From Candidatus Hydrothermarchaeum profundi (GTDB lineage: Archaea > Hydrothermarchaeota > Hydrothermarchaeia > Hydrothermarchaeales > Hydrothermarchaeaceae), in contig MTMF02000009.1 in the NCBI GenBank assembly GCA_002011125.2, positions 224,001 to 288,000 on the forward strand: a DNA stretch of 64,000 nt. Direction: 5' to 3'. The translations under genes and the position numbers were made by a program. Each line of letters starts with the position of its first letter. The first letter of the stretch is position 1. Below the pieces are notes generated by a model. That model saw only the letters and a program-made list of their open reading frames with translations, did no database searches and was not told the origin of the DNA. Below are positions 1,818-21,779 of the stretch, piece after piece.

Positions 1818-2432
1818 ATGGACTTTGAAAAACTAAAGGAAGAGGTTGCTAAAAAAATGAATGCGCCTGGCCATGATTTCCTACATGTTGTAAGAGTTTA
1901 TAATCTTGCAAAAAAGATTGGAAGGAATGAGAACTGCGATATGGACATTCTACTAGCTGCTTCTCTACTGCATGACATAGGCAGAGGAGAAGGTGTAGAG
2001 CATTCTAAAAAATCTGTCGAAATCGCTGGAGAGATATTGAGAAAGATCGACTTTCCTGAAGAAAAAATAAGAGACGTACTGTACGCAATTAGCCTGCATA
2101 GATATCGGGATGGGATTACTCCTCATACGCTGGAGGGAAAGATTCTACAAGATGCAGATAGATTGGATGCTATAGGGGCTATTGGGATTATAAGATGTTT
2201 CACTTATGGTGGGGCCCATGGTAGGATGGACTACCATCCAGAGGATCCATTCTTTGAGACGCCTAGGAGACTTGAAGGCGACCGGTATTCGTTAGACCAT
2301 TTCTACGATAAATTATTCAAGCTTAAAAATACTCTACATACAGAAATGGCCCGCAAAATAGCAGAAGGTAGGTATGAGTTTATGCGGGAATTTCTCAGAA
2401 GATTGAAAGACGAGATAGACAGCCAAAGCTAA
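1818..2432 (+). CDS. HD-domain phosphohydrolase
   Basis: HDFLH...LLHDIG...HRY...QDADRLDAIGAIG motifs. Confidence 0.85.
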   Translation: MDFEKLKEEVAKKMNAPGHDFLHVVRVYNLAKKIGRNENCDMDILLAASLLHDIGRGEGVEHSKKSVEIAGEILRKIDFPEEKIRDVLYAISLHRYRDGITPHTLEGKILQDADRLDAIGAIGIIRCFTYGGAHGRMDYHPEDPFFETPRRLEGDRYSLDHFYDKLFKLKNTLHTEMARKIAEGRYEFMREFLRRLKDEIDSQS

Positions 2433-3349: not shown

Positions 3350-3357
3350 ATCTCGAA

Positions 3358-6629: not shown

Positions 6630-6636
6630 CGCCTCC

Positions 6637-9087
6637 TCACTTCGTCTCCCATTTCTCTCTTGGTACGCCCTTATAATATATCGCGGAGCCCTTCTCTGCA
6701 AACCTCATATAATGTCCTATAGTAACCGTGTCATCCTTGTCAGGGGATATATAATGTTCTGGACCTTTGCCTATGCTTTTCAAGAACTCCTTTACTTTCT
6801 CAACAGCATCATCCGGATCTTGGTCAGGGCGGTAAACTCTCACTAGATTGCATTTGTATTGCACTTGAGTATAAAATGGGTCTTTAATTGTGTCGTCTAT
6901 CAGTTCGTTAACGTTTTGATACGGATAAAACGGCTGATATTTGTCAAATCCCTCAGGCATCCAACAAGATGCCTCATCTACCATCTCATTGACCCATGCA
7001 ACAGCGTATACTTTGCCATGGTCATTTTCAGCGATAACTAAATCACCGTCCTTTATCCCCAGCGTCTTCGCTGTGGAAGTATTGATGTTTATTATCATAT
7101 GAGTCTCTAGTTCTGATGTCCACGGCCACCAATGCCCCATTTCATGGAAGTGGGCGACGAGTCTTCCAGTTGTCAAATTTAGTGGATATCTCTCCCATAC
7201 GTCTGGCCTTGACACTGGGGTGCAGCTCGCTTCAATGTGCATTGGAAGCGGATTGAAGCCAAGTTGCTCTAAAGCCTCTGAGTAAAATTCTACTTTACCT
7301 GTAGGAGTTGGGAATCTTTTATCTGTCCCTGGATAGTTTACTCCCTCCTTATACATTATCCACTGAGCGCCTCTGATAGTGGCTTCTGGATCAGAGTACA
7401 TCATGGCCTCGTCCTTTGTCTCTGCCGGCCACATGACTCCTCCCTTCGGGGACTTCTCAGGATCCATACTATCCATCGTAATACCTGCCACAAAGCTCTC
7501 CTGAGAATGGAACCAGTCCTGACAAACACGCTCGTCTATAATTGTCTGCTCTTTATCCTTCCACCAGCTTTTACCATCTGGTGCATAATAGGCCTCGGCG
7601 AACTCAAATCTCTTAGCTAAGCCAGCCCAAAAATCTATATCGGCTCTGCATTCCCAGTTTCTCGGTATAACTTGGTTATGCCACTGGCAATGCCTATTAT
7701 TTCCATGATGCACCACTCCCTCATGCTCTAAGAAGCTTGTTATCGGGAAAGTGGCATGCATCCAGCTTCCAGTCTCATTTGGTGTGAAGGAGATATGCAC
7801 CCCACAATAAAGGTTTTTCATAAACTCCCTTACCTTATTGTTGTTAGGCCATTGGAGTATGTGATTACCATTCCAAATAAGACCTTTTATTGGATATGGC
7901 TTTCCTGTGTATCCGGGATTAATCATGCATGCCGATGCTGTATCCCCCCATGGTATGATTTTATCAGCCAATATGGGCTCCTTTATCTTTTGGATATACG
8001 GCCCTAAGTCTTTACCAGCACTTAACACTGGTCTACAATTATGTAGCCAGTTCCAGCCCCCTCCTTTTACTCCAACATTACCTGTGATAGCCACTAGGAA
8101 CTGATATCCTCTATTAGCTTGGGCTGCAGGATATTGCTGTGCCGTTCCTAAACAGCCTGTGAAGTGAGTCCTGCGTGGATAGGCGATTTTCTCTGCTGCA
8201 AGCCTAATGTCCTCGGCAGGTACCCATGTGATATTTTCTGCTTTCTCAGGCGTATAACCTTTCACGGACTCGGCGAACTTATCGAAGCCCACCGTCCATC
8301 TATCAATAAAATCGTGATCTATCCCATCTATCTCATGTATTAAAACATTCGCCAAAGTTAAAGTGAGATAAGAGTCCGTTGATGGTCTAATTCTTAACGC
8401 TAGATCCGCTTTTGCCATCGAGGCATTAAACCGTGGGTCAACACAAATGTAAAATGCTCCATTCTTATCTTGCGCCTCAAGATACCATTTTTCTGTAATT
8501 ATCTCCAACGCAGCAGCATTAGACCCTGCCTGAAATATTGTATCACTGTTCATAGCATCTTGACAGGGGTTCATGAGCCTTAGAAACTCTTTAGCTCCAA
8601 AAACATACTGACCAATAGCCCCAGGACTCTCGCAACAAAGGGGGCCCTGACCATATACATTCGGTGTACCGTACATTGCAAGAAACCTTGCTCCTCCTAG
8701 CTTATTTCCATAACTGCTTCTACCTGTTCTATGGCATCCAACAGTGTGTGCTCCCCATTTTTCTCTAATATATTTCAGTCTGTCTGCTACAAAATCCAGC
8801 GCTTCATCCCATGTTGCCCTTTTGAATTTTCCATTTACATTGTCCTCCCTAATCGCAGGATATTTATATCGAAGAGGGTTATAGGCATGCTGTATTTGAG
8901 CAGATCCCTTACAACAAAGTGAACCGTAATTTTGTGGATGTTCTTCATCCCCCCAAATGTCAACTATACGATTATCTTTAATGAAAATTTTCATGCCACA
9001 GCCGCTTTCACACATGTTATCGCAAGTCGTGTAACGGATAGTATCATAGTCTCTTATAGATTCCTGCGCCTGTTTTAAAAAAACCAC
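6637..9087 (-). CDS. Cytoplasmic bis-PGD Mo/W oxidoreductase catalytic subunit (DMSO-reductase family, substrate unknown)
   Basis: N-terminal CDNMCESGC...LCCKG Fe-S motif, ATWDEALD, VDPR, FPTPTGKVEF, LTTGR. No twin-arginine signal. Start moved to GTG 9087 behind GGAGGTGA. Confidence 0.88.
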   Translation of the reverse strand: MVFLKQAQESIRDYDTIRYTTCDNMCESGCGMKIFIKDNRIVDIWGDEEHPQNYGSLCCKGSAQIQHAYNPLRYKYPAIREDNVNGKFKRATWDEALDFVADRLKYIREKWGAHTVGCHRTGRSSYGNKLGGARFLAMYGTPNVYGQGPLCCESPGAIGQYVFGAKEFLRLMNPCQDAMNSDTIFQAGSNAAALEIITEKWYLEAQDKNGAFYICVDPRFNASMAKADLALRIRPSTDSYLTLTLANVLIHEIDGIDHDFIDRWTVGFDKFAESVKGYTPEKAENITWVPAEDIRLAAEKIAYPRRTHFTGCLGTAQQYPAAQANRGYQFLVAITGNVGVKGGGWNWLHNCRPVLSAGKDLGPYIQKIKEPILADKIIPWGDTASACMINPGYTGKPYPIKGLIWNGNHILQWPNNNKVREFMKNLYCGVHISFTPNETGSWMHATFPITSFLEHEGVVHHGNNRHCQWHNQVIPRNWECRADIDFWAGLAKRFEFAEAYYAPDGKSWWKDKEQTIIDERVCQDWFHSQESFVAGITMDSMDPEKSPKGGVMWPAETKDEAMMYSDPEATIRGAQWIMYKEGVNYPGTDKRFPTPTGKVEFYSEALEQLGFNPLPMHIEASCTPVSRPDVWERYPLNLTTGRLVAHFHEMGHWWPWTSELETHMIININTSTAKTLGIKDGDLVIAENDHGKVYAVAWVNEMVDEASCWMPEGFDKYQPFYPYQNVNELIDDTIKDPFYTQVQYKCNLVRVYRPDQDPDDAVEKVKEFLKSIGKGPEHYISPDKDDTVTIGHYMRFAEKGSAIYYKGVPREKWETK

Positions 9088-9266
9088 GTTTTCACCTCCA
9101 AGTAGGTATAGATGCACCAGAACTTACAGTGCGATATAGGAAAGAGTAGAAATAATTGTATAAATAACTTTACTCAAATATGGATTTGCTCACATAAATG
9201 CACAACTGTCGATAGATTATTCGAAAAAATAGATAGAGTATAAGTAAGATTAAAATTAAAAAAGAG

Positions 9267-9887
9267 GTGGGAAGAACATTGCAAATTTCATGCATAATAG
9301 TTGCTGGCGGAAAAAGTAGTAGGATGGGTTACGACAAAAAGTTTATTGAGCTTAATGGGTCTATCTTTCTAGAGTATGCTATTAGGGCAGCCGAGAAGAT
9401 AGCAGATGAGATAATAATTGTGGTAGGTTCTAACACACAAAAAGATGAAACCCGTAGGTTTACTCATCTTAAGATTGCAGTTGATAAAGAGCTTAATAGA
9501 GGCCCAGTAATGGGTATCCTCACAGGACTGGAAAACTGTAGCCACAATTACGCTGCTGTAATGCCGGTAGATACTCCCCTTATCAACCCTGAGATCTATA
9601 AGTACATGATTTCGTTGTCCCATAGCTTTGATGCGGTTATCCCTAAAGATGGTGAACATATAGAACCGATGCATGCGATTTATCATGTAAAAACAATGAC
9701 TACTGCCTGTAAAAAAGCGTTGAAAAAGGGGGAAGAATCTGCCTATTTAACCGTGAAATATCTTAAGAAAGTTATGTTCGTTCCGGTAGAAGAACTAAGA
9801 AAATTTGACGAAAATTTAATGACTTTCCGCAGCGTTAATACACCGGAGGATGTAAAGAAGCTTAAAGAAATGTTAAAAGGACGTTAA
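9267..9887 (+). CDS. mobA: Molybdenum cofactor guanylyltransferase
   Basis: IVAGGKSSRMGYDK, GPVMGI, VDTP, EPMHAIY, VNTPED. Confidence 0.92.
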   Translation: MGRTLQISCIIVAGGKSSRMGYDKKFIELNGSIFLEYAIRAAEKIADEIIIVVGSNTQKDETRRFTHLKIAVDKELNRGPVMGILTGLENCSHNYAAVMPVDTPLINPEIYKYMISLSHSFDAVIPKDGEHIEPMHAIYHVKTMTTACKKALKKGEESAYLTVKYLKKVMFVPVEELRKFDENLMTFRSVNTPEDVKKLKEMLKGR

Positions 9888-9888
9888 A

Positions 9889-11130
9889 ATGGATGTTAGA
9901 ACCAGAGGTTTTTATAGGAGAACTCCTGTAGATGAAGCCCTAAATATCCTGCTCAAAAGAGTTTCCCCTATAGGGCAAGAATTTATCGATATAAGCGTAG
10001 CGGTAGGCAGAGTATTGGGGGAAGACTTAACCGCTAAGGAAGATATACCTCCATTCGATAGAGCTGCAATGGATGGATATGCAGTTAAGGGCGAGAATAC
10101 TTTTGGTGCTTCACAGACGAATCCCATTTATTTTAAGGTAATAGGAGAAGCCAGTATTGGAAAGCTCTCTAAACTAGAAGTTAGAGAATTTGAAGCGGTG
10201 CGGATAATGACGGGCTCTCCTATGCCTAAAGGAGCTAATGCTGTTGTTATGTTCGAGCATACAAACGAGTTAGACGGGGAAATTGAAGTACTAAAGCCAG
10301 TGCCTCCGGGTAAAAATGTATCTCGCAAAGGAGAGGATGTAAAAAAAGGTGGAACTCTACTTAAGAAAGGCAGAGTACTTAAACCTCAAGATGTGGGAAT
10401 GTTAGCTGCTCTAGGGATGAACCAGGTAAAAGTTCAAAAGAAACCGAGCGTATCCATCATATCTAGTGGAGACGAGCTTACTCCGCCTGGGGAGACGCTT
10501 CAAGAGGGAAAGATATACGATATTAACAGTTACTCCCTAGCATCATATGTGAAGAAGTTAGGCGGAATACCATATATTTTCGGAATTGTGAGAGATAAAG
10601 AAAAAGATATCTCTAATGCTATATTGAAGTCACTGCAACACGATATGATTATAATCAGCGGATCTACTTCGGTGGGTAAGAGAGATATAGTGCCAAAAAT
10701 TGTTTCAGAGATGGGTAAGATACTAGTTCACGGTGTAGCTATTCGCCCAGGTGAACCTACAGGGTTTGGTATTATATCGGATAAAATAGTTTTTATGCTC
10801 CCCGGCTATCCCGTCGCAGCTATAGTTGGATTTGAAACATTTGTTAGACCTGCTCTGCAAAAGATGCAAGGAACTGAGCTTAAAAGCCCTTACCCTAAGA
10901 TAAAAGCATATCTAAGCCGGAAGATATCATCAGAACTGGGGAGAAGAGACTTTGCAAGAGTCCGCATATGGAAAGAAGGAGATAAACTTATAGCAGAACC
11001 TGTTAGGACAAAAGGGTCAGGCATAATCTCAAGTTTGGTAAAAGCGGATGGGTTCATTATCGTGCCTGAGAATACAGAAGGATTGGAGAAAGGAACAGAA
11101 ATAGAGGTGAACTTGTTCGATAGGTATTGA
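9889..11130 (+). CDS. moeA: Molybdopterin molybdo/tungstotransferase
   Basis: PPFDRAAMDGYAV, IMTGSPMPKGANAVV, SGDEL, LPGYP. Confidence 0.93.
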   Translation: MDVRTRGFYRRTPVDEALNILLKRVSPIGQEFIDISVAVGRVLGEDLTAKEDIPPFDRAAMDGYAVKGENTFGASQTNPIYFKVIGEASIGKLSKLEVREFEAVRIMTGSPMPKGANAVVMFEHTNELDGEIEVLKPVPPGKNVSRKGEDVKKGGTLLKKGRVLKPQDVGMLAALGMNQVKVQKKPSVSIISSGDELTPPGETLQEGKIYDINSYSLASYVKKLGGIPYIFGIVRDKEKDISNAILKSLQHDMIIISGSTSVGKRDIVPKIVSEMGKILVHGVAIRPGEPTGFGIISDKIVFMLPGYPVAAIVGFETFVRPALQKMQGTELKSPYPKIKAYLSRKISSELGRRDFARVRIWKEGDKLIAEPVRTKGSGIISSLVKADGFIIVPENTEGLEKGTEIEVNLFDRY

Positions 11131-11208
11131 ATTTCTTACCACAATTTTTTCTAAAGTTAAGCGTCGTTAAGTTTTGCGCAAAATATAAAATCAGAAAGGA
11201 GTGTTAAA

Positions 11209-11427
11209 ATGAAAGAACAAGTAGCTGAGGTTATTAGGCGCATAAGGCCAAACTTGCAGGCAGATGGTGGCGACATCGAATTAATAGATGTAAAGGATGG
11301 CGTCGTGAAAGTTAAGCTGACTGGAGCTTGTGGTAGCTGCCCAATGTCTCAGTTGACATTGAAACTGGGAGTAGAGGCAGCTATTAAAGAAAACGTGCCT
11401 GGAGTTGAAAGAGTAGAAACCGTTTAA
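11209..11427 (+). CDS. NifU C-terminal/NfuA-type Fe-S carrier
   Basis: [14 protein letters not shown]...GACGSCPMS. Confidence 0.9.
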
Positions 11428-12707
11428 GTATACTTCTTTAGAGATTTATCCAGAGAGCTTATAGCACATTCAACCTGCTCTTTAGTAATTACAAGGGGAG
11501 GTTGGAATCTGAGAGTGCAGTTGTAGTAGCCTCCTTTACCTATCAAAATTCCGTCTTCCCTCATTTTATTCTTAACCTTATCAGCAAGATCAACTAAAGG
11601 CTTTTTTGTATGTTGCTCCGCTAGCTCAACGCCTATCATCAGCCCTTTACCTCTCACATCACCAACAACAGGATATTTTTCCTTCAGTTCTAGTAGTTCA
11701 TTTTTAAAAAACTCACCGATTTTTTTGGAATTTTCTATTAACCCGTCTTCCTTAAGTGCTTTTATGTTACCGAGAGCAGCAGCGCAAGAAACCGGATTTC
11801 CACCAAATGTCGACAGATGGTCTCCTGACTCAAAGGCATCTGCAATTTCCTCCTTCGCTATAAAGGCGCCTAAGGGTAAACCTCCAGCGATACCTTTTGC
11901 GAGGGGCATTATATCAGGCTTTAGATCCCATATTTCAGATGCAAACATCCTGCCACATCTACCAAAGCCTGTTTGAACTTCATCCACTATAAAAAGAGAA
12001 TCATTCTCTTTGAGAATCTCGTGAATAATCCTAAAGTACTCTCCATCCGGGGGGTGGATTATCCCTCCTTCTCCTAAAACTGGTTCAATAAACATTCCAG
12101 CAACATCTCCGCTTGAAGTTGTGCCGATTATTCTCTCCAAGGACCTAGCACACTCTAGATCGCATTCAGGATATTCTAACCGATATTTACACCTAAAACA
12201 ATAAGGAGCATCGGCATAGGTTACCCCAGTTAAAAAGGGACCCATTTTATTCTTATATTTTTTCTGTCCTGTTAGAGTTAACGCACCAAAGGTCCTCCCA
12301 TGAAAGGAATACGTCAAAGAAATGAACTCCTTTTTCCCAGTATATTTCCTAGCAAGTTTCATTGCTCCTTCAACTGCCTCTGCTCCGCTGTTGGAGAAAA
12401 ATGATTTTTTTAGTCCCTCTGGAGTGATCTCTGCAAGTTTCTCTGCCAGTTCTCCAACAGTCTGCAGGTAATACACATAGGAGCAACAGTGGAGATGTTT
12501 CTCTAGCTGTTTCTTAATTGCCTCAATTACATGAGGATTCCGATGGCCAACATTAATCACGGATAATCCAGAAAAACAGTCAATATAAGTCCTCCCCTCA
12601 GTATCTTTTATAGTAGCCCCTTCGGCAGACTCTACTACAAAGGGATCCATTCCCTTAGATATAGGCATTATAAACTCTTCATACTGCTTTATGGTCTCCA
12701 TATCCAT
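11424..12707 (-). CDS. Class-III PLP-dependent (omega-amine) aminotransferase
   Basis: [42 protein letters not shown]. Start trimmed from the ORF track. Confidence 0.9.
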
Positions 12708-12712
12708 CACCC

Positions 12713-13117
12713 TTAAGAAGTCTGTAATATAAGCGCGCCAGGATAACACCAAGATACACACTTAGGCTCTCCATTACAGACATCACATTTCATTGCCTTG
12801 TTAGCATCTTCATCCATATATATACCATTAAAGGGACATGCTGTAACACATGCGCGGCATCCAGTACACTTCTCTACATCTAACAGGGTTCTTCCTGTTT
12901 CTTCGTCTTTATAGAGAGCATCATATTTACATGCTATAATGCATGGAGGATTCTTGCACTGCCTACAGACTGCTGGAACACTTTCTGCATATTTGCTATC
13001 AACATTCACCTTAATCAATGCTTTTTCTGGCCAAAAAACTTCTCTCTTCTCCATCGAACAAGCAAGTTGACACAGCTTACAGCCAGTACACTTCTCTTTT
13101 ATGATTTTAACAAACAT
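12713..13117 (-). CDS. 4Fe-4S ferredoxin-like AOR partner subunit
   Basis: CTGCKLCQLAC, CRQCKNPPC, CTGCRACVTACP, CDVC; directly follows the AOR gene. Confidence 0.88.
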   Translation of the reverse strand: MFVKIIKEKCTGCKLCQLACSMEKREVFWPEKALIKVNVDSKYAESVPAVCRQCKNPPCIIACKYDALYKDEETGRTLLDVEKCTGCRACVTACPFNGIYMDEDANKAMKCDVCNGEPKCVSWCYPGALILQTS

Positions 13118-13119
13118 CC

Positions 13120-15039
13120 TCAAAGTCGCTCCACCTCCTCGGCGAGGTCTTCCATACCTAGCTCTATGAGCTTTTCTTTTTTCGGTATTCCATTTTCATC
13201 CCACTGCCTGAGTTCGTAATATTCCTCCAGCATCTTCTTGAAGTCCTTATACTTTATTTGAACTCCTTTAGTAGGTCCATCCTGAATCGGCTCATTGAAG
13301 ATCCGCCATGGAAGGGCTTCGTCATCTTTTCTCCTTAGTCCCTCACGAACATTGAATAATCGAGTCATGTTTATTATTCTCTCGCTTGTCCTCTCAAGCT
13401 CTCTCCTATCTCTAATATCGTCCCAACCTGTAGCTCTTGCTACTAAATCAGCAATCGGATCAGAAATTGGAGGTAACGCAAAATCACACATTATAGAAGA
13501 AAACTTTAGACCATAATGATGCTGTTGCCTATAAACGATGTATGCCTTACCCTCAGGATTCCATCTTTCAGTCTCAATTGGAATATTCTTCTCACCTTTT
13601 TCTGGGTCAGCATCCAACCAAAATGTACCCCATACTTCCACCCCTATAGGCCATGATCTGAGGTGGCATCCCCCCCTATCGGCTGTTGCATAGGCCAAAG
13701 GCATACTTATAGCAGCCCTAGGTTCATATGCTGGGAGCTCTAGTCCTTTCACTTGCATGGCAAATCTTTCAGAGCCTTTTCCAATCTTCTCAGACGCTCG
13801 TTTTACCCCCTCTGCCAACAGATCTCCTATACCTTCCCTTCTAGCAATCTTATTTACCATTGTGATCATTGCCTCTGAGTCCCCCCATCTCAACTCCACT
13901 CCGTCAAGGTCCTCCTTCGAAAGTATTCCTTTTTCGTAACACTCCATAGCCCAAGCTAATGTATTCCCAGTTGAAATTACGTCCATTCCCATCCTATCGC
14001 ACAGGAGATTTAACGCAACTACTGCCGGTAAGTCTGAAAGATTGCAGTTTGATCCTAACAATGCTAGGGTCTCATACTCCGGGCCTTCGACCATTGAGCC
14101 AGCATACGGGCCTTCCTCTACCTTGAGAAAATTGCTACACGCCATTGGACATTGAATGCAAGCCCTATTTCTGACTCTAAGTTTTTTAACAGCCTCTGGC
14201 CCCAGTTTCTCACCCATCTCTTTAAAAAATCCTGACTGGAAATTTTTGGTTGGAAGTGCCCCCACCTCATTCGTCCAACCAGATAACTCCGGAGTTCCTG
14301 CCTGATCTTTCCAGCTTATAGCAAAAAGTGAGTCTGGTTGCTCTATTAGATGCCGAGTTGTAGTCTCTTTTGCTGCTTCAACAAATCCTTCAGGATCTGC
14401 AACTTCAACCCTGCCTGTTCCCTTTACCGCTACTGCTTTTAAATTCTTTGAGCCAAAAACAGCTCCAGCTCCACCACGGCCGTGCTGCCGATAATACTCA
14501 TGATTAACCAGGGCATATCTGACAAGGTTTTCACCAGCTGGACCTATAGTTAGAACTGAGATATCTTTCCCGTATTTCTCCTTTAAGGCATCCTCTGTTT
14601 CGTGAGTATCTTTCCCCCATAAAGACTCTGCGTCTTCTATTTTTACTTTTTCATCTTTTATCCAAACATAACTGGGGTTCTCCGCTTTTCCTTCAACTAT
14701 TAACGCATCATATCCTGCGTATTTGAGTTCTGCTCCAAAATATCCTCCAGCAAAACTATCCAAGAAAATACCGGTAAGAGGAGACTTAGTTACTAGCGCA
14801 TACTTACCGCATGCTGGTGCAATTGTTCCTGTGAGAGGCCCGGTTACTATTATAGCTTTATTTTCCGGTGAAAGAGGATCGGTCCCTTTAGGTATCTCAT
14901 GGTAAAGCATTCTAGCGCCAAGCCCCATCCCTCCCACGTATTTACGTGCCCATTCAAGGTTTAAGGGTTCATCTACAGCTTCTTTGGTAGTCAAGTTTAC
15001 CCTTAATACCTTGCCCTTATATCCTCTAACAGATGTCAT
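13120..15039 (-). CDS. aor: Tungsten-containing aldehyde:ferredoxin oxidoreductase family protein
   Basis: KSPLTG, GRGGAGAVFGSKNLKAV, CIQCPMAC, EYET, DRGGCH. Start at ATG 15039. Confidence 0.92.
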   Translation of the reverse strand: MTSVRGYKGKVLRVNLTTKEAVDEPLNLEWARKYVGGMGLGARMLYHEIPKGTDPLSPENKAIIVTGPLTGTIAPACGKYALVTKSPLTGIFLDSFAGGYFGAELKYAGYDALIVEGKAENPSYVWIKDEKVKIEDAESLWGKDTHETEDALKEKYGKDISVLTIGPAGENLVRYALVNHEYYRQHGRGGAGAVFGSKNLKAVAVKGTGRVEVADPEGFVEAAKETTTRHLIEQPDSLFAISWKDQAGTPELSGWTNEVGALPTKNFQSGFFKEMGEKLGPEAVKKLRVRNRACIQCPMACSNFLKVEEGPYAGSMVEGPEYETLALLGSNCNLSDLPAVVALNLLCDRMGMDVISTGNTLAWAMECYEKGILSKEDLDGVELRWGDSEAMITMVNKIARREGIGDLLAEGVKRASEKIGKGSERFAMQVKGLELPAYEPRAAISMPLAYATADRGGCHLRSWPIGVEVWGTFWLDADPEKGEKNIPIETERWNPEGKAYIVYRQQHHYGLKFSSIMCDFALPPISDPIADLVARATGWDDIRDRRELERTSERIINMTRLFNVREGLRRKDDEALPWRIFNEPIQDGPTKGVQIKYKDFKKMLEEYYELRQWDENGIPKKEKLIELGMEDLAEEVERL

Positions 15040-15069
15040 GATATAGTTTTTAACTAAAACCAAATATTA

Positions 15070-15708
15070 TTATTTCGGTAATACCTTTTTCGCTACAGCC
15101 ACAGCACTTTTAGAGTCTTCTCCATACCCGTCCGCTCCTATTTCCTCTGCATAGTCTTCTGTTATAGGAGCACCTCCTATTAGTACCTTAAACTCAGATC
15201 TAATCCCTTTATCCCTTAGGATTTCTATGAAATCCTTCATAGCGCCCATAGTCGTAGTCATCATCGCACTTAAACCAATTCCCTGAGCACTTTCTTTAAT
15301 AGCAGTTTCAATTATTTTCTCCAGAGGAACGTCGGCTCCTAGATCGATTATTTCGTAGCCGTTTACCTTTAGCATTATGGTGACTATGTTTTTACCTATG
15401 TCATGAATATCTCCTTCAACAGTCGCCATCACGATTTTAGGGCCTTTGCCATCTTTCTTTGAACTTAGTATATGAGGTTCAAGCACTTCTACAGCGGAAG
15501 TCATCGCATCGGCAGACATCAATACATGAGGCAAAAATATCTTACCCTTTTCAAATAACTCACCAACGACTCTCATCCCTGCCCCATATCCTTTTTCTAT
15601 AGCGTCTATTGGGTTTACTCCCTTTTCTAGCGACAATTTGGCTAACTCAACTGCCTTATCTACATCTCTCTCTATGATAGCCTCTTTCATTGACTCAAAT
15701 ATCTCCAT
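15070..15708 (-). CDS. mtbC: Methyltransferase cognate corrinoid protein (MtbC/MtmC-like)
   Basis: GDIHDIGKNIV B12-binding motif, SAMMTTT, IGGAP, helical cap domain. Confidence 0.88.
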   Translation of the reverse strand: MEIFESMKEAIIERDVDKAVELAKLSLEKGVNPIDAIEKGYGAGMRVVGELFEKGKIFLPHVLMSADAMTSAVEVLEPHILSSKKDGKGPKIVMATVEGDIHDIGKNIVTIMLKVNGYEIIDLGADVPLEKIIETAIKESAQGIGLSAMMTTTMGAMKDFIEILRDKGIRSEFKVLIGGAPITEDYAEEIGADGYGEDSKSAVAVAKKVLPK

Positions 15709-15777
15709 AGCGAGGGTATTTTTTACAAAGTTTGATTTATATGTTTCTGCCTATAATAATTGAAAAAGGGTGGTTAA

Positions 15778-17166
15778 ATGGAGTATAGAACGAGAAGTGG
15801 AAATGGGAAGATCATCAGCATGAAAAAAAGAGAAATAGTACGAGAAATAGAGGACGGAATAAACGATGCAACTGAACGCGCTGATATCGAGCCCCTGTCA
15901 GATTCTGAAGTTGAACATCTATTAGATATCCTACTCCAGAAAGACAAAGTAATAACCGTTAAAGCCGGAGACGAAGTCATTCTCACAAGAGATGGAGGGA
16001 CATTGAAGTATACCGGCTGCACCCGATATAGCGGCGTCCCATTATCAAGAGAACAGGCAGTGTGGGTTGGAGAGAGGATTCTCAGTCTTGATACTATGGA
16101 ATTGGGGCATATAGATTATAGTATCAAACCGGTTAAACCTATTGCTCATGATGAATCGAGTGTCCTCGAGAATATTTTGCTAAGCTCCATTATTCCTATC
16201 TTCTATGGAGCCATGCCAAACCTAGGGCTTTACTTCACTTCGCAAGGAGGGCAGTTTCCAGATTACTCAGCCTTAATGAACAAAGGAAAATTCAAAGAAT
16301 CTCAAGAAGCACTTTATGAAGCAGCCCAGAAGTTAATAGAGGATATAAAGTATGTTTCTAAAGTATTCTCTAAATCAGGAACTGATGGAATAAATCTAGA
16401 TACCGCAGCTGCTGCTGGCGACGCTGAATTTTTTGCTACGTTAAATGCAGTAGAGTTCATTAGCAGAGAAATTAAGATACCAGTACAAATTGGAATGGCA
16501 TCGGAACAAGTACTAGGTCTCCACTGCGAGCTAAAATACAAGGGGGAACTATTGGCAGGGGCATATCCACATATACAAGGAAAGCTAGCTGAAAGAGCTG
16601 GAGCCACTATATTTGGGCCTGCAATAAATACTAAGGTCTCTAAGTCTTTTCCATGGAACCTTGCTAGAGCGCTTACCTTCGTGAAGAGATGCATAAAGGA
16701 CTTAAAGATACCCATCCATGTTAACATGGGGATGGGAGTAGGAGGGATTCCTATGAGTGACGTGGCTCCAATGGACTCGGTTTCTCGGGGGGCTAAGGCT
16801 ATGATAGAGATAGCTAGAGTTGACGGCATATAGCTAGGAGCAGGAGATGTTGGAGGAGTAGACATGACTTATAGGGTATGCTCTGGCATGGGGGGAATAA
16901 GAACTTCTGGAGACCTAGTTGCTCGAGTGCAGCTGAGTAAAAAAGTGAAACTAAAAAAAGCTAAGGAATATGTAGCAAAAAAACTGGGTGTCGCCGTTGA
17001 AGTCTTATCTGACGAGTTCGGTATGAAAAAAATTAGAGAGGAATTAGATATCGGTTCTCCATTGGCTACCACATATAAATCGAAGGGTATAATCGCCAAG
17101 AAAAATATCGCAGAGATACTCGATCTGCCTATACCCTCTGTAGAAAGATCCTTTATTTCTTCATAA
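15778..17166 (+). CDS. mtbB: Dimethylamine:corrinoid methyltransferase-like protein, pyrrolysine read-through at TAG 16831-16833 (462 aa)
   Basis: ORFs 15778..16833 and 16864..17166 are in frame across one TAG: ...NMGMGVGGIPM...ARVDGI-[TAG]-LGAGD...SGMGGIRTSGDLVAR, matching the MtbB DGI(O)xGxGD Pyl site. Confidence 0.88.
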
Positions 17167-17179
17167 AAATAAGTAAAAA

Positions 17180-18913
17180 ATGAAAGCTGAAACACATTTA
17201 GATGTAATGCTTAATAACTTGGGCGATGGCTCGCTAGAAGAACGCTTTATCAGGGCTAAGAAGACTTTCTTATTAGAAAAACTTGGCAATCTGCAAGAGG
17301 AGCTTGAGAGAAAGGGAGTGGCACAGGACCTGAGATTTTTGATAATGATGCTCTACATATTTGACTTTATAGAAAGAGAAGTCGGAGTGAAATACGCAGC
17401 CGAAATTTTAGACTCTCTCAAGCATAGTGACTGGCCATTTGAATATTTTAAACCCCTATTGCGAAAGGATAATCTCGGAAAAAAAATCGAGGTAGGAGTC
17501 GACCTTAACTATAGGAAGCTAGATCCCACTACCAAAGAAAAAACCGTTGAACTCGTCCATAAATTATGGAGAGACCTACGTCTCTCTGGAAACTTCTCAG
17601 AGGATATCAGTAGAATTATAGAGGATAAAAAAAAGAAATACCGGGCACTATCCTCAGAAATAGAAAAACTGCGGCGTGAGATAGTTACATATTTGACAAG
17701 TGTTAACGCCAAAAAAACAGAGATTAAACTCTTTAATATTGGCATCGTTCCCACCGAACTATGCCCAAATAGCTGTAGATTTTGTCTCGCAGCATGGAAG
17801 ACCAGAACAAGCGAAAGGATCTCAAGACTCTTAAGTGATGAAGATTTTAAACAACTTGCTGACCAGATAATAGACTACGCAAATGAGAAGAAAGTGGTCA
17901 TAACCATTACTGGAGGCGAGCCTCTTCTTGAATTGGATAGAGTCCTCTATATTATAAGCAAAGCGGATACCAGGGTCGACCTCTCCACCAGTGGTTTTTG
18001 GGGCGGTGACAAGGAAGAGGCAACAATGATACTCTCAAAGATCGAAAGGGCTATAAAAAATAATAGAAATACCGACTTTAGATTCTACCTCCAGATAAGC
18101 CTAGATTACTTCCACCAAGAGGTGCGGCTGGAAAATGGAGAACTACGCGAAAATATCCCTCTCTCTAATATCATCAATATAATAGAACTCTGCCAAACAA
18201 AATTCACAGATATACGGATATGCCCTATCACTAAATACACTATCTATGAAGACCCATTAGCGTACCTAATTAAGGAGCTTAAAAGTAGAGGATGGAAAGT
18301 AGAACTCTATGAGAAAAAATATGACCTCCGCTTCCAAGTGCCTGTAATCGTAGACGATAAGTTAGTTAGAAAACCCGCATTGCTGATGGCGAAGCTCAGA
18401 GTTGGCAAAGGAAAGCCTCTTCTCATATCCTACTCGGCTGTTGAGAGAATAGGAAAAGCTGAAGCCTTAGAAAAGTTTGAGTACCCAACATTTGAAAGTG
18501 ACGCAGAAAAATTTTTAGAAGGTGAAGCCAGCGGGAAATTTCCAATAACGGGTATTGAAGTCAGCGATGATGGCAATGTATACCCTGGAGCCCATTCTTT
18601 ATACTCTTGGTCGCTTGGTAACCTTTTGGAAACCGATTTAAAAAACATACTTGAGATAGCAGAGCACGACCCCCTAATTATATACCTTCAAAGCAATCCG
18701 AGAAGAATAGTTGAATTCGCTCTAGAATATGACCCTAAAATTGTAGACAAAGCTAAATCCTCATCTTCTCCTATGGCAGCAGTATTTAAAATCCTTGAAA
18801 CACCCGAAGCTAGACTTAGCATTACAAGAATGATTATTGAAAAAGATCAAGAGTATGGTAGAAAAATTAAAAAAGAGATTAAAAATATGAAAACAAAAAC
18901 TTCCTTTAATTAA
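17180..18913 (+). CDS. Uncharacterised radical SAM protein with long N-terminal helical extension
   Basis: TELCPNSCRFC, ITGGEP, QISLD; SPASM-like tail DGNVYPG...LGNL without cysteines. Confidence 0.8.
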   Translation: MKAETHLDVMLNNLGDGSLEERFIRAKKTFLLEKLGNLQEELERKGVAQDLRFLIMMLYIFDFIEREVGVKYAAEILDSLKHSDWPFEYFKPLLRKDNLGKKIEVGVDLNYRKLDPTTKEKTVELVHKLWRDLRLSGNFSEDISRIIEDKKKKYRALSSEIEKLRREIVTYLTSVNAKKTEIKLFNIGIVPTELCPNSCRFCLAAWKTRTSERISRLLSDEDFKQLADQIIDYANEKKVVITITGGEPLLELDRVLYIISKADTRVDLSTSGFWGGDKEEATMILSKIERAIKNNRNTDFRFYLQISLDYFHQEVRLENGELRENIPLSNIINIIELCQTKFTDIRICPITKYTIYEDPLAYLIKELKSRGWKVELYEKKYDLRFQVPVIVDDKLVRKPALLMAKLRVGKGKPLLISYSAVERIGKAEALEKFEYPTFESDAEKFLEGEASGKFPITGIEVSDDGNVYPGAHSLYSWSLGNLLETDLKNILEIAEHDPLIIYLQSNPRRIVEFALEYDPKIVDKAKSSSSPMAAVFKILETPEARLSITRMIIEKDQEYGRKIKKEIKNMKTKTSFN

Positions 18914-19097
18914 TTTAATACCTTGTAATGGTTTATGCTCTACTCATTGGTTGACTTTTATAATTCCAGTCACACCTATCAAGATAAGTATACCTGAGTA
19001 TGGGACTTCCAAGAGTATTCGTCTAACCGATATAACAGCAACATTATACAGTAAGATAGTAAACCTATAAAAGCAACTCTTGTCTAAGAAATCTATT

Positions 19098-19736
19098 ATG
19101 ATTGACCTGAATTTCCTGTTATACTCCTTTATAGCATTATTCATTATAGTAGATCCCATAGCAAACGTTCCAATATTCATGGGCATCCTCTCAGACTTCA
19201 ATAGGGAAACTCGCCGGGAAATTGTTAAAAAGTCGGTTATTATTGCAACGATAACTCTTGTGATCTTTACCATATCAGGAGAGTTTGTATTCCGTTATCT
19301 GCATATTGAAATATACTCTTTCAGAATAGCCGGTGGATTTCTATTATTTATAATTGCAATTGAAATGCTCTTTGGAAAGCGGACAGGTACTGTGAGTAGT
19401 ACAGAAGAAGAAGAGGAAGCAAGGGTTAAAGAAGACGTAGCAATAACTCCCTTAGCAGTTCCTTTACTCTCAGGACCTGGTGCTATTACTACAAGTATCG
19501 TACTATTTAACTCAGCTCAAGGAATTAGTGAACGTTTCATTGTCTTATTTGATATTGGAGCTGTATTCTTTATCTCCTATTTTATTCTATCTAGATCTGA
19601 GAAGGTTTTCGATGCTTTAGGTTACACGGGAACTAGAGTGATAGTGAGGATTATGGGTCTTCTACTAGCGTCCATAGCAATTCAGTTCATTATCACAGGG
19701 ATAAAGGAAGCATTCTTAGGAATAGGCCACGTATAG
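19098..19736 (+). CDS. MarC-family membrane protein
   Basis: IVDPIANVPIF, SFRIAGG, TPLAVPLLSGPGAI, RIMGLLL. Confidence 0.9.
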   Translation: MIDLNFLLYSFIALFIIVDPIANVPIFMGILSDFNRETRREIVKKSVIIATITLVIFTISGEFVFRYLHIEIYSFRIAGGFLLFIIAIEMLFGKRTGTVSSTEEEEEARVKEDVAITPLAVPLLSGPGAITTSIVLFNSAQGISERFIVLFDIGAVFFISYFILSRSEKVFDALGYTGTRVIVRIMGLLLASIAIQFIITGIKEAFLGIGHV

Positions 19737-19799: not shown

Positions 19800-21779
19800 A
19801 TGGAACAAAAAGAGTTCCACGAAGTAGTATCAATAAACGAAGCTAAGCGTCTACTTTACTCTAACTATACGCCTACTCCGACATTTGAGGAAGTAGATCT
19901 GGGGGAGGCTCTTGGCAGAGTTTTATTTGAAACTGTAGTTGCCCCGATAGATGTTCCGCCTTTCGACCGGGCGGCGATGGATGGATACGCAGTAAGAGCT
20001 AAGGATACATTTTATGCGGATGAAGAAAACCCTGCCGAACTGCGAATTCTCGGCTACATTCAAGCTGGTGATAGCCCAAAAGTAGTGGTGGAAGAAAACA
20101 CGTGTGTAGGTATAGCGACCGGCGCCCCCATGCCGAAGGGAGCTAATGCGGTTGTTATGGTAGAGTACACTGATAGAGAAAAAGATATTGTAAAAGTTTA
20201 TCGCCCAGTCGCACCTGGAGAAAATATAATGTCAGCTGGGTCTGATATAATGCGAGGTGAAACTGTTCTAAGAAGGGATACGGTATTATCTCCAAGGGAA
20301 ACTGGAGTGCTCGCAGCATTAGGGTTAAAGAAAATTAAAGTTTATAGAAGACCGCAGGTCGGGGTACTATCTACCGGGAATGAAATAGTGGAGCCCGGCT
20401 CTAAGCTGGAGTATGGAAAAATCTATGATGTAAACTCCCGGGCAATAATTGATGCTGTAATTGAAAATGGAGGGGACGCAAAATTTTTCGGCATAGTTAG
20501 GGACGACCCTGCGCTATTACGCAGAAAATTAAAAGAAATGTTGGAATGCGACATAATAATTACGTCTGGAGGAACCTCTGCGGGAGTAGGAGATTTGTTA
20601 TATAAAGTAATTGATGACTTAGGATCACCGGGTATTATTGCTCATGGGATCGCCGTTAAACCGGGAAAACCTACGATTATAGGAGTTCTAAATAATAAAC
20701 CTCTCTTTGGTCTTCCAGGATATCCAACATCCGCTATGGTGATTTTCGATGTATTCGTTGCTCCTTTGATAAGGAGATTGGCGGGTTTGGTTGAGAGGGA
20801 AAGAAAAAAAATAGAAGCAAAGACTGCTATGCGCCTATTCTCGGCTAAAGGAAGATATGAATACATGCTTGTAAACTTGGTCAAAAGTTCTGCAGGGGAA
20901 TATAGCGCTTATCCTATATTGACTGGATCAGGTGCTATAACAACCTTGGCGGAGGCTGATGGTTACCTTGAAGTTCCAGAAAATACTGAGATAATCCCGG
21001 AAGACAGCTTGGTTAAGGTCTCCCTTCTTAGCGATATAATAAAACCTGCGGATCTAACTATAATTGGGAGCCATTGCATAGGAGTAGACCTCATACTAAA
21101 CCTTTTAAATAAGAAGACTCAAATTCAAGCAAAGGTTATTAATGTGGGCTCTTCTGGCGGATTAGCTGCAGTAAAGCGGGGTGAATCAGATATATCGGGA
21201 AGCCATCTTATAGACGAGAAAACTGGTGAGTATAACATTCCGTTTTTAAAGAAATTTGGCATAGAGAGTACAGCTTATGTTGTTAGAGGCTACGATAGAG
21301 AACAAGGTTTCGTTATTACAAAAGGGAATCCCAAGAAAATTACTGGAATTGAGGATCTCGCTCGGGATGATATTTTCTTTATAAATAGAAACCCTGGTTC
21401 AGGCACTAGAGTGTTGTTGGATATGGAATTGAAAAAATTTGCTTCTGAGAAAGGATTAGAGTTCAATGCCCTTATTAAGAAAATAAGAGGATATGAGATA
21501 GAAGCTAAGTCTCACAGTGCAGTAGCCGCTGCAGTAGCGTACGGCAAGGCTGATGTAGGATTAGCAATAAAAACAGTGGCAGAACAATACGGCCTAGACT
21601 TCTTACCGCTAAGAGAGGAAAAATATGACTTTGTTATACCTAAAGCTAAGATTAATAAGGTATCTGTGCAAAAGTTTATTGAAATTCTAAATTCTGATGA
21701 ATTTAAAGATGTGCTTAGGAGAATCCCTGGCTTGAAACCTAATAATAAAACAGGAATGATTATACATGAACCCCAATGA
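19800..21779 (+). CDS. moeA: MoeA fused to a periplasmic-binding-protein-like domain (archaeal long MoeA)
   Basis: MoeA motifs followed by GSHC...GSSGGL...NRNPGSGTR...E.YDF. Confidence 0.9.
   Translation: MEQKEFHEVVSINEAKRLLYSNYTPTPTFEEVDLGEALGRVLFETVVAPIDVPPFDRAAMDGYAVRAKDTFYADEENPAELRILGYIQAGDSPKVVVEENTCVGIATGAPMPKGANAVVMVEYTDREKDIVKVYRPVAPGENIMSAGSDIMRGETVLRRDTVLSPRETGVLAALGLKKIKVYRRPQVGVLSTGNEIVEPGSKLEYGKIYDVNSRAIIDAVIENGGDAKFFGIVRDDPALLRRKLKEMLECDIIITSGGTSAGVGDLLYKVIDDLGSPGIIAHGIAVKPGKPTIIGVLNNKPLFGLPGYPTSAMVIFDVFVAPLIRRLAGLVERERKKIEAKTAMRLFSAKGRYEYMLVNLVKSSAGEYSAYPILTGSGAITTLAEADGYLEVPENTEIIPEDSLVKVSLLSDIIKPADLTIIGSHCIGVDLILNLLNKKTQIQAKVINVGSSGGLAAVKRGESDISGSHLIDEKTGEYNIPFLKKFGIESTAYVVRGYDREQGFVITKGNPKKITGIEDLARDDIFFINRNPGSGTRVLLDMELKKFASEKGLEFNALIKKIRGYEIEAKSHSAVAAAVAYGKADVGLAIKTVAEQYGLDFLPLREEKYDFVIPKAKINKVSVQKFIEILNSDEFKDVLRRIPGLKPNNKTGMIIHEPQ

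Follow-up and report, generated by a model that had tools for sequence, protein, structure and literature searches.

The closest described counterparts of the locus analyzed here are the MtbB/MtbC pair of Methanosarcina (TIGR02368/PF09505 and TIGR02370) and the operons for the pyrrolysine (Pyl) proteins MttB and MtbB of marine Deltaproteobacteria, which are non-methanogens whose methyl groups are thought, according to the main text of Kivenson et al. 2021 (PMC8318568), to enter the Wood-Ljungdahl pathway. That main text makes no mention of transaminase, aldehyde, GABA or mtbB, and the supplementary gene tables of the same paper may list an aminotransferase (AT). A further point of comparison is MtyB of Eubacterium limosum, a non-Pyl quaternary-amine methyltransferase of the MttB superfamily acting on γ-butyrobetaine, for which the part of PMC8604678 that bears on it describes weak activity on 4-methylaminobutyrate. 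In the same account, demethylation by E. limosum ends with 4-dimethylaminobutyrate, further-demethylated products do not support its growth, and no enzyme finishing the demethylation to GABA is known in that context. MtyB resembles the pathway proposed below in combining corrinoid-dependent demethylation with an N-methylated ω-amino acid skeleton, but it belongs to another protein family (MttB fold without Pyl) than the methyltransferase described here. Our literature search returned no report tying a GabT-like AT or an aldehyde:ferredoxin oxidoreductase (AOR) to a Pyl methyltransferase.

Gene order of the block and its insertion

The window, a 64,000-nucleotide stretch of Candidatus Hydrothermarchaeum profundi DNA, holds the following features, as determined from open reading frame calls together with Pfam and NCBIfam profile matches:

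11209-11427, + strand: NifU-like Fe-S carrier ORF, 72 aa (PF01106 NifU, 101.5 bits), within the inserted block
11424-12761, - strand: class-III (GABA-AT-like) AT (Aminotran_3, 398 bits)
12713-13123, - strand: poly-[4Fe-4S] electron-transfer subunit (FeS), 136 aa, four Cys clusters (Fer4_11, 63 bits)
13120-15063, - strand: AOR-family protein (AFOR_N, 278 bits; AFOR_C, 450 bits)
15070-15708, - strand: methyltransferase-type corrinoid protein, 'MtbC2' (TIGR02370, 234.7 bits, cut-off 215.3; DIHDIG motif)
15709-15777, no strand: divergent intergenic region, 69 bp, A/T-rich with TATA-like stretches
15778-17166, + strand: MtbB homologue, 'MtbB2', 462 aa (PF09505, 569 bits; TIGR02368, 463.9, cut-off 369.1)
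16831-16833, + strand: Pyl codon of MtbB2, the sole in-frame TAG, at the conserved position of the family
17180-18913, + strand: radical SAM (rSAM) protein, 577 aa, part of an older MobA-MoeA-rSAM-MoeA_PBP neighbourhood
19080-19736, + strand: MarC-family membrane protein (PF01914, 204 bits)

The layout that the initial annotation described for 11424-18913 is real: the genes for the corrinoid protein, AOR, poly-4Fe-4S subunit and class-III AT form one tight leftward operon, and the Pyl MtbB homologue with its in-frame TAG runs rightward from the same 69-bp gap, which presumably serves as a promoter region common to both directions. Within the operon, which begins with the corrinoid gene (the cognate of MtbB), no intergenic gap exceeds 6 nt: the corrinoid and AOR genes are spaced by 6 nt, the AOR and FeS genes overlap by 4 nt, and 5 nt separate the FeS stop (12713-12715) from the likely AT start, ATG 12707, which gives 427 aa. 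The upstream GTG 12761 is probably too distant as a start, since AT homologues have about 425-430 aa.

The genes for the NifU-like protein, AT, FeS subunit, AOR, corrinoid protein and MtbB2 lie as an insert within a MobA-MoeA-rSAM-MoeA-PBP cluster. In one relative (locus L197, on the same contig as L214) the cluster MobA-MoeA-rSAM-MoeA_PBP is intact, with 13 nt between the MoeA and rSAM genes and without the NifU-like ORF between them. Judged against this one relative with preserved flanking gene order, the block is a lineage-specific insert; no MtbB was found in any of 37 relatives that share the family, order or class of the host. Chimeric assembly is ruled out, as contigs from an independent run (X2) span both block ends (9545-11561 and 16750-19432) with zero differences. 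Judging from the different nearest relatives of its parts, the block is a mosaic, for which en-bloc transfer is unproven. A level GC content of about 40% also counts against an acquired module.

The rSAM gene begins 13 nt after MtbB2 and had initially been counted as a member of the unit, a placement which we do not retain. It is present in 15/40 relatives, none of those 15 having MtbB, and sits between MoeA genes in L197/L214, L195/L212 and L201/L218. Since it belongs to a cluster that a relative retains without the insert, it is a bystander.

The encoded proteins and the remainder of the methylamine gene set

Similar to its Methanosarcina counterpart, MtbB2 is a full-length family match with a single TAG at the conserved position and an adjoining cognate corrinoid protein carrying the DxHxxG motif, in a genome with pylTSBCD. 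In contrast to the Methanosarcina system, the host is an archaeon that is not a methanogen, no McrA being found in its genome (97.65% complete), and MtbB2 is a second copy, 52% identical to the canonical MtbB1 of the same genome. It is only 46-49% identical to methanogen MtbBs and departs at 37/166 of the columns that are at least 95% conserved among 85 canonical MtbBs, entire conserved motifs being replaced, including the residues immediately following Pyl. Moreover, the operon of its corrinoid gene contains AOR, FeS and AT genes in place of mtbA/ramA-type genes. In the MtbB tree, it falls, as the initial annotation had anticipated for an enzyme with a new substrate, into a clade apart from methanogen MtbB (clade W; 100% support, long stem), in which its nearest relatives are labelled Bathyarchaeia; the closest among the 238 and 330 relatives found are just 56-58% identical.

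MtbB1 (766 bits) belongs to a canonical methylamine island elsewhere in the genome, which also comprises Pyl-MtmB (767 bits, accompanied by MtmC), Pyl-MttB, RamA, Amt and CbiMQ. The genome encodes in addition about nine URO-D-type methyltransferases. MtbC2 is closest to the MtbC1 of its own genome (51% identical) and scores 213.6 bits against the MtbC equivalog, under the cut-off of 350. Because the corrinoid partner of a divergent second MtbB is co-transcribed with AOR and a GABA-type transaminase, the arrangement suggests that the Pyl enzyme demethylates a substrate larger than dimethylamine.

The AT belongs to the same family as the GabT/GABA-AT-like class-III enzymes but scores below all NCBIfam equivalog cut-offs (GabT, 351 versus 506.65). 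Its homologues of about 425-430 aa, 52-56% identical, are auto-named GabT/5-aminovalerate AT, and R156, E231, K289 and R418 align with R141, E211, K268 and R398 of E. coli GabT. The AT thus retains the arginine that in GabT holds the carboxylate of the substrate, and its conservation would favour an N-methyl ω-amino acid over the plain alkylamines or diamines also considered at the outset. The block AT is distinct from the ArgD/LysJ-type gene of this lineage, which is a separate housekeeping copy (C9:1434337-1435494) that groups with the genes of relatives. The 37 relatives mentioned above have no orthologue of the block AT either, the best match (49% identity) falling in the housekeeping paralogue clade.

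The best solved relative of the AOR is that of Pyrococcus furiosus (1aor, 485 bits), with which it shares family, fold and a 4Fe-4S partner; it remains below the NCBIfam AOR equivalog cut-off (267 versus 868). The label 'tungsten' given to it initially has been dropped, as the metal is not readable from sequence. The poly-4Fe-4S subunit shares 43% identity with its counterpart ahead of AOR in the Desulfosarcina locus L041. The AOR sits amid molybdopterin-cofactor genes, which alone possibly explains its placement. A further AT-peptidase-AOR run in the same genome, whose AT is of class I/II, indicates that AT and AOR can adjoin for ordinary amino-acid fermentation.

Recurrence at other MtbB loci

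The combination of MtbB with AT and AOR is not unique to this genome. Besides the window, 3/33 clade-W loci hold both AT and AOR (L104, L105 and L108, near-identical metagenome contigs of one lineage); in L108, AOR-AT lies beside pylS-pylD-pylC, corrinoid-MtbB and pylB. In a Desulfobacterales MtbB clade (clade D), AT is present in 16/33 loci and AOR in 8/33, with either or both in 19/33, compared to 1/81 (AT) and 0/81 (AOR) canonical MtbB loci. The AT subfamily of the block is widespread, and among its 80 nearest loci AOR occurs in 3, a corrinoid gene in 1 and MtbB in 0.

L059 has corrinoid-AT-MtbB on a single strand inside an MttB/URO-D/pyl gene run, and in L041 the order is FeS-AOR-MttB-MtbB, where stop and start codons overlap. 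These two loci and L073 derive from organisms of the type described in the main text of PMC8318568 (marine Deltaproteobacteria); compared to those operons, MtbB2 is archaeal and from another MtbB clade, and the block AT is of another subfamily. Against solved GabTs, the clade-D AT reaches 398-400 bits. The MtbB-linked ATs comprise at least two non-orthologous class-III subfamilies, so the pairing must have formed repeatedly, and they point to a substrate bearing a carboxylate. The grouping of clades W and D was not rejected (AU test, p = 0.48), so the MtbB tree itself cannot show an independent origin of the associations.

Proposed pathway and alternative readings

The sequence-level checks of synteny, MtbB phylogeny and AT identity did not contradict the initial interpretation, which is supported in part. 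We consider it an even call (probability roughly 0.5) that the block (11.1-17.2 kb) serves one pathway in which a secondary N-methylamine is demethylated and transaminated, and the resulting aldehyde oxidized; the amine would probably be an N-methyl ω-amino acid. The secondary amine would be bound on the pyrrolysine of MtbB2 and its methyl group transferred to the Co(I) corrinoid protein encoded alongside, to be passed onward by one of the URO-D-type methyltransferases, with RamA from the canonical island keeping the corrinoid active. The GABA-AT-like enzyme would then turn the primary amine into an aldehyde, e.g. succinate semialdehyde, which AOR and its poly-ferredoxin subunit would oxidize to the acid, giving low-potential electrons. 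The block would be an acquired catabolic module whose substrate exceeds dimethylamine in size; N-methyl ω-amino acids are the likeliest candidates, 4-(methylamino)butyrate being one example.

Unlikely, yet carrying real weight, is the view that no common pathway exists: MtbB2 and its corrinoid protein would form a redundant or condition-specific dimethylamine system, and AOR-FeS-AT would serve ordinary amino-acid or aldehyde fermentation, incidentally co-transcribed with the corrinoid gene beside molybdopterin-cofactor genes. MtbB2 does score above the curated cut-off of the dimethylamine methyltransferase equivalog and may thus use plain dimethylamine, the AOR resembles the broad-specificity P. 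furiosus type, the block lies amid MobA, MoeA and MoeA-PBP genes, another AT-peptidase-AOR run exists in the genome, and AT and AOR are absent from most clade-W loci. However, incidental co-transcription fits poorly with the tight spacing (6 nt or less) from the corrinoid gene through AOR, FeS and AT, with the joint insertion of the genes of the block, as judged from the one relative keeping the flanking order, and with the recurrence of the same family trio at non-canonical MtbBs versus 1/81 canonical loci, given an AT subfamily otherwise rarely beside AOR (3/80) or a corrinoid gene (1/80).

A shared pathway of other chemistry is distinctly improbable; here the substrate would be a tertiary or cyclic N-methylamine (dimethylglycine, N-methylproline), or the class-III enzyme a racemase/epimerase or lyase. 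Among the solved proteins closest to the AT are PLP racemases/epimerases (isoleucine 2-epimerase and an amino-acid racemase of broad specificity), non-Pyl MttB of the quaternary-amine type is frequent at clade-W loci (in the peat subclade and in L008/L009, it and transporters take the place of AT/AOR), and some clade-D loci carry, between two MtbB genes, a DAO-GCV_T fusion resembling dimethylglycine/sarcosine dehydrogenases. Yet no single variant has specific support, and an AOR beside an AT most simply indicates an aldehyde product, i.e. terminal-amine transamination.

Very improbable is a shared pathway on plain dimethylamine, in which MtbB2 would yield monomethylamine, the AT formaldehyde and the AOR formate as a Pyl-sparing bypass of MtmB: the four clade-D Desulfobacterales genomes examined do have Pyl-MttB and Pyl-MtbB operons including AT without Pyl-MtmB (only stop-free MtmB homologues, 271-385 bits) and formaldehyde oxidoreductases (FOR) belong to the AOR family (1b25), but the present genome has canonical Pyl-MtmB, MtmC and RamA, its AOR matches AOR proper better than FOR (485 versus 394 bits), the ATs are GabT-like with the putative carboxylate-binding arginine retained, to our knowledge no methylamine transaminase is known, and the remodelling of MtbB2 would be left unexplained.

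With regard to substrate uptake in the N-methyl ω-amino acid pathway, no transporter of known amine specificity was found near the block. The MarC gene is missing from the rSAM-MoeA_PBP junction of L197, L212, L214 and L218. By this comparison, its presence at that junction in the window marks another lineage-specific insert, and its product might, speculatively, be a transporter.

Layout, assembly and genomic setting of the block

The module under study comprises a leftward run of four genes and a rightward gene for a pyrrolysine (Pyl) MtbB homologue, hereafter MtbB2, and is listed here together with a NifU-like reading frame, added to the original layout, and the adjoining radical SAM gene.

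11209-11427, plus strand: NifU-like ORF, 72 aa, within the inserted block
11424-12761, minus strand: class-III aminotransferase (AT); Aminotran_3, 398 bits
12713-13123, minus strand: poly-4Fe-4S subunit (FeS), 136 aa, four Cys clusters; Fer4_11
13120-15063, minus strand: aldehyde oxidoreductase (AOR); AFOR_N and AFOR_C
15070-15708, minus strand: corrinoid protein; TIGR02370, 234.7 bits against a cut-off of 215.3; DIHDIG motif
15778-17166, plus strand: MtbB2; PF09505, 569 bits; TIGR02368 (MtbB), 463.9 bits against a cut-off of 369.1; single TAG at 16831-16833
17180-18913, plus strand: radical SAM gene, 577 aa; Radical_SAM, 41 bits

Coordinates and Pfam/NCBIfam matches agree with the reading frames claimed in the initial annotation, and the tight leftward run that it described, from the corrinoid protein through AOR and FeS to AT, was likewise borne out. 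An ATG at 12707, 5 nt past the FeS stop codon (12713-12715), yields an AT of 427 aa matching its homologues of 425-430 aa, so that the leftward genes are spaced by at most 6 nt. The NifU-like ORF is convergent with the AT gene, the stop codons of both overlapping, and the divergent corrinoid and MtbB2 genes are separated by 69 bp.

An assembly chimera was ruled out by contigs from a sequencing run of another study (X2), which bridge both block ends without differences, their cover being missing in places (e.g. about 11562-11867 and 16036-16749). A run labelled as a hydrothermal-vent metagenome (X3) contains a ~95%-alike strain, represented by pieces of the AOR gene, the corrinoid-MtbB2 junction and the radical SAM gene; a further run (X1) may be the source of the window and was not counted as independent. 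A foreign base composition of the block was not seen, GC being ~40% throughout.

No MtbB was found in any of 37 relatives sharing the family, order or class of the host. The radical SAM family, which is small and archaeal (about 40 homologues), is present in 15 of 40 relatives, and one related family has three genomes in which its gene lies directly before a MoeA-PBP fusion gene, one of them showing the order MobA-MoeA-rSAM-MoeA_PBP at locus L197 (same contig as L214), with 13 nt from MoeA to the radical SAM gene. As L195/L212 and L201/L218 each denote a single contig under two handles, these are three genomes, not six; no MoeA was found within the 1.5-kb flanks of the radical SAM gene in the other 12 relatives bearing it. 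The window order is MobA-MoeA-[NifU, AT, FeS, AOR, corrinoid, MtbB2]-rSAM-[MarC]-MoeA_PBP, which is most simply explained by an insertion of the block in the window lineage, a deletion in the related family being the alternative. The suggestion that MtbB2 and the radical SAM gene run rightward together from the 69-bp gap is correct for the layout; the radical SAM gene was nevertheless rejected as a pathway member, since its family occurs in 15/40 relatives without MtbB and stands between MoeA genes in the three related genomes.

The position of this gene between MoeA and MoeA-PBP, behind MobA, is common to the window (9267-11130, 17180-18913 and 19800-21779) and the three related genomes (5187-10661 in L197), and the unannotated 577-aa family may represent an unrecognised step of Mo/W-cofactor maturation. 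A MarC-family membrane protein is encoded between the radical SAM and MoeA-PBP genes of the window (19080-19736), where the three related genomes have no gene; a Thermococcus member of this family is reportedly a small neutral amino acid transporter, and the window protein could be a candidate for uptake. Left of the block (5826-9117 and 2429-4452) are genes for a DMSO-reductase-family molybdopterin oxidoreductase (826 aa), a DmsB-like FeS subunit, a NarJ-like chaperone domain protein and MoaA, and Mo/W-cofactor genes are abundant across the whole region around the block.

MtbB2 within its host genome and the MtbB tree

The host genome (2.19 Mb, 97.65% complete, with an archaeal SSU rRNA) encodes pylT-pylS-pylB-pylC-pylD in this order (contig C9:1317284-1321652), and McrA was not found in it at this completeness. 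TAG terminates 283 of its 1502 long stop-to-stop frames and hence remains in wide use as a stop. PylRS is noted in Hydrothermarchaeota in a passage of PMC9630628, and a preprint (10.1101/2024.09.30.615893) describes Pyl as confined to one family within this phylum. A canonical methylamine island, some 1.64 Mb away from the window, encodes MtbC1-MtbB1 (MtbB1: PF09505, 766 bits, single TAG), Pyl-MtmB (767 bits) with its own corrinoid protein, a Pyl-containing MttB, RamA, an Amt-family transporter and CbiM/CbiQ; MtbB2 is therefore a second MtbB copy, with 52% identity to MtbB1. The genome also has about nine URO-D-type methyltransferase genes.

MtbB2 matches PF09505 over its full length (568.7 bits, profile positions 2-459 of 463). 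Its TAG corresponds to residue 352 and is followed by 110 further open codons in frame, and one in-frame stop is found at the aligned Pyl site in 92 of 92 homologues compared. The closest relatives have 56% identity among genomes (one per species; best 80 of 238) and 58% among JGI metagenomes (best 80 of 330). The phylogeny, named as a check in the initial annotation, places MtbB2 in a separate clade: in a quick maximum-likelihood tree it groups with two Bathyarchaeia-labelled MAGs and one Nitrospiraceae-labelled contig on a long stem (100% SH-aLRT), while MtbB1 is placed with a Hadarchaeota-labelled gene. With metagenome loci included, this clade (clade W) has 34 rows, namely the window on a lone long tip and two subclades, one with 11 rows and a peat one with 22. 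A second clade (clade D, 41 rows, 100% support) is separate and consists nearly entirely of Desulfobacterales-type sequences; an AU test did not reject a grouping of W with D (p = 0.48), so the MtbB tree gives no proof of their independent origins.

Of 166 columns that are at least 95% conserved among 85 canonical MtbB sequences, namely those outside both clades, MtbB2 differs at 37; the majority states of the rest of clade W and of clade D differ at 40 and 15 of these columns, respectively. Across the whole of clade W, the canonical G-D-Q-G-N-S-G-V-G is replaced by G-C-(T/S)-R-Y-(A/S)-G and the post-Pyl stretch G-D-P-x-G-M-P-I-x-H by G-D-(A/V)-G-G-x-D-(L/M)-(P/T)-Y, whereas clade D has a shortened loop with an invariant Arg in the former region. 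One Gly position is changed to Arg in clade D and to Tyr in clade W. No solved MtbB structure was found in the PDB. Because MtbB homologues split into canonical and non-canonical clades, annotations of 'dimethylamine use' are not to be trusted at face value.

The aminotransferase, the AOR and their recurrence with MtbB

The corrinoid protein has B12-binding_2 and B12-binding domains with a DxHxxG-type motif; it passes the TIGR02370 cut-off and misses that of the MtbC equivalog NF041607 (213.6 vs 350). It is 51% identical to MtbC1 of its own genome and 40-44% identical to clade-W corrinoid proteins. The AOR (AFOR_N, 278 bits; AFOR_C, 450 bits) belongs to the tungsto/molybdopterin family, with W or Mo as candidate metal, and among solved relatives is closest to AOR proper (1aor, 485 bits; FOR, 394 bits), missing the NCBIfam equivalog PRK09849 (267 vs 868).

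The AT, one of three class-III aminotransferases in the genome, reaches no NCBIfam equivalog cut-off: its top subfamily is PRK08117 (440.7 vs 574), and GabT (TIGR00700, 351 bits vs 506.65) is likewise missed. The initial annotation had named a plain ArgD/LysJ biosynthetic enzyme as one case that would overturn its proposal. This candidate was rejected, as the AT falls short of the corresponding cut-offs (TIGR00707, 367 vs 410; LysJ, 282 vs 700) and a separate, vertically inherited housekeeping copy (C9:1434337-1435494) clusters with the single AT of 11 relatives (98% support). The window AT belongs to a different, widespread subfamily (52-56% identity, top match 63%), with members in Planctomycetota, Acidobacteriota, Bathyarchaeia, haloarchaea and others, auto-named GabT/5-aminovalerate aminotransferase. 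In 33 of 40 relatives the window AT has a match, at no more than 49% identity, and in the tree these matches join the housekeeping copy in its 98%-supported clade.

Among solved structures, the window AT is closest to an archaeal 'GABA-AT' (7vno), PLP racemases/epimerases and GabTs. By a two-step mapping (the AT of clade-D locus L073 aligned to 1sf2, then the window AT to the L073 AT), R156, E231, K289 and R418 align with R141, E211, K268 and R398 of E. coli GabT, of which we take K268 to be the PLP lysine and the others the Arg/Glu/Arg switch for the substrate carboxylate. These residues point to an amine donor carrying a carboxylate; as the same arginines occur in ArgD-type enzymes, they indicate this substrate class and not GABA itself.

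The initial annotation had asked whether MtbB synteny with AT and AOR extends beyond this genome. It does, in clade D and at three clade-W loci.

Loci with AT and AOR near MtbB. Any tblastn match to the window AT or AOR with E <= 1e-10 and at least 120 aa was counted; loci were ranked by likeness to MtbB2, taking the best 80 of 238 from genomes and the best 80 of 330 from metagenomes, and related loci are not independent of one another.
Canonical MtbB: 81 loci; AT 1; AOR 0; both 0
Clade D: 33 loci; AT 16; AOR 8; both 5
Clade W without the window: 33 loci; AT 3; AOR 3; both 3 (L104, L105 and L108; near-identical, one lineage)

Thirteen duplicate or short loci stand outside tree and counts, two of which (L164 and L167) also have an AT. 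By Pfam, L108 carries AOR-AT, then pylS-pylD-pylC on the opposite strand, then corrinoid-MtbB and pylB. L041 combines FeS (43% identical to the window FeS), AOR, a non-Pyl MttB and Pyl-MtbB with overlapping stop and start codons, and L059, from a clade-D genome, carries on one strand a non-Pyl MttB, Pyl-MttB, corrinoid protein, AT, Pyl-MtbB, corrinoid protein, URO-D (called by its clustering with an L036 gene), non-Pyl MttB, pylS, pylB, pylC and pylD. The clade-D AT strongly matches solved GabTs including that of E. coli (398-400 bits), and the tree derives MtbB-linked ATs from at least two subfamilies. Among the 80 loci nearest to the window AT, gathered with an alignment query, AOR was present in 3, a corrinoid gene in 1 and MtbB in 0. 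The tight operon, the insertion as a block and the recurrence with non-orthologous ATs make a functional link between MtbB2/corrinoid protein and AOR/FeS/AT quite probable.

That the two halves share no pathway is rather unlikely, yet several observations limit the linked reading: the parts of the block differ in their nearest relatives, neither AT nor AOR is encoded near MtbB at most clade-W loci, the AOR lies among cofactor genes, and the genome has another run, of a class-I/II aminotransferase, a peptidase and an AOR.

A stop-free MtmB homologue (355 bits) in the neighbourhood of a second AOR (C9:1055-1061 kb) was rejected as a further methyltransferase-AOR case because the genes are convergent and this non-Pyl homologue belongs to a run with genes for a TiaS-like protein, a 321-aa radical SAM protein and DUF7714 (C9:1056904-1061047; L192, 8904-13047). 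According to a 2026 paper (PMC13044021), methanogenesis from tetramethylammonium and choline needs a non-Pyl MtmB homologue.

Candidate pathway and substrates

Pyl serves three known enzymes acting on mono-, di- and trimethylamine. Given a link, the simplest scheme for the module, that of the initial annotation, to which we assign a probability of about 0.5 overall, would be the conversion of a secondary N-methylamine to a primary amine by MtbB2 and the corrinoid protein, of the primary amine to an aldehyde by AT, and of the aldehyde to an acid by AOR-FeS. Features of the AT speak for an N-methyl ω-amino acid as the putative substrate. Judged from sequence, the interpretation of the initial annotation is sharpened and partly supported. 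A Pyl methyltransferase clade tied to a GABA-type transaminase and AOR would extend Pyl chemistry to larger N-methylamines, and would offer a testable route by which subsurface, vent and marine-sediment communities could use betaine-derived amines anaerobically and in full. Our literature search (main texts) retrieved no MtbB homologue with a substrate other than dimethylamine and none tied to AT or AOR.

Other chemistry for the MtbB2-AT-AOR module appears improbable. Least probable is a route from dimethylamine via methylamine and formaldehyde to formate. MtbB2 passes the curated dimethylamine methyltransferase cut-off, a limit on the larger-amine reading.

Extending the N-methylamine scheme to both clades is tentative and unlikely: W and D would be Pyl enzymes for secondary N-methyl ω-amino acids (e.g. 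4-(methylamino)butyrate) which, alongside MttB homologues of both the Pyl and the non-Pyl kind, a transaminase of the GabT type and AOR, would complete anaerobic betaine breakdown, for example from γ-butyrobetaine via GABA and succinate semialdehyde to succinate. According to PMC8604678, MtyB removes a single methyl group from γ-butyrobetaine and acts weakly on 4-methylaminobutyrate, neither 4-dimethylaminobutyrate nor 4-methylaminobutyrate supports growth of E. limosum, and known quaternary-amine methyltransferases halt after one demethylation, a gap that a Pyl methyltransferase clade tied to a GABA-type transaminase and AOR would close. If true, the extended scheme would provide the first new substrate of a Pyl enzyme since the three methylamine methyltransferases, and would allow sediment and subsurface microbes to harvest all methyl groups of osmolyte-derived amines, along with low-potential electrons.

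Pyl-MtmB was not found in the four clade-D Desulfobacterales genomes checked (G061-G064, with loci L059, L073, L076 and L085), which have Pyl-MttB and Pyl-MtbB operons and MtmB homologues that are all stop-free (271-385 bits). Pyl-MttB and Pyl-MtbB are described in marine Deltaproteobacteria in PMC8318568, the main text of which does not mention transaminase, aldehyde, GABA or mtbB.

Among other neighbours of MtbB, clade-W locus L128 has a non-Pyl MttB and pyl genes. L008 and L009, from the Bathyarchaeia-labelled MAGs holding the closest genome-derived relatives of MtbB2 (best 80 of 238), have a non-Pyl MttB, RamA and ABC transporters. Genes for a γ-glutamyltranspeptidase, an S58 (DmpA-type) peptidase, an amidohydrolase and amino-acid/peptide-type ABC transporters are located there (L008, 11704-13350; L009, 11742-12713 and 18642-20264), and the amine substrate may be freed from an amide or γ-glutamyl conjugate. 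In five Desulfobacterales loci (L035, L038, L047, L057 and L064), a DAO-FAO_M-GCV_T fusion of 814-842 aa, of the dimethylglycine/sarcosine dehydrogenase type, is encoded directly behind Pyl-MtbB and, in all of these except L057, is followed by a second MtbB copy, an arrangement suggestive of anaerobic metabolism of N-methyl amino acids.
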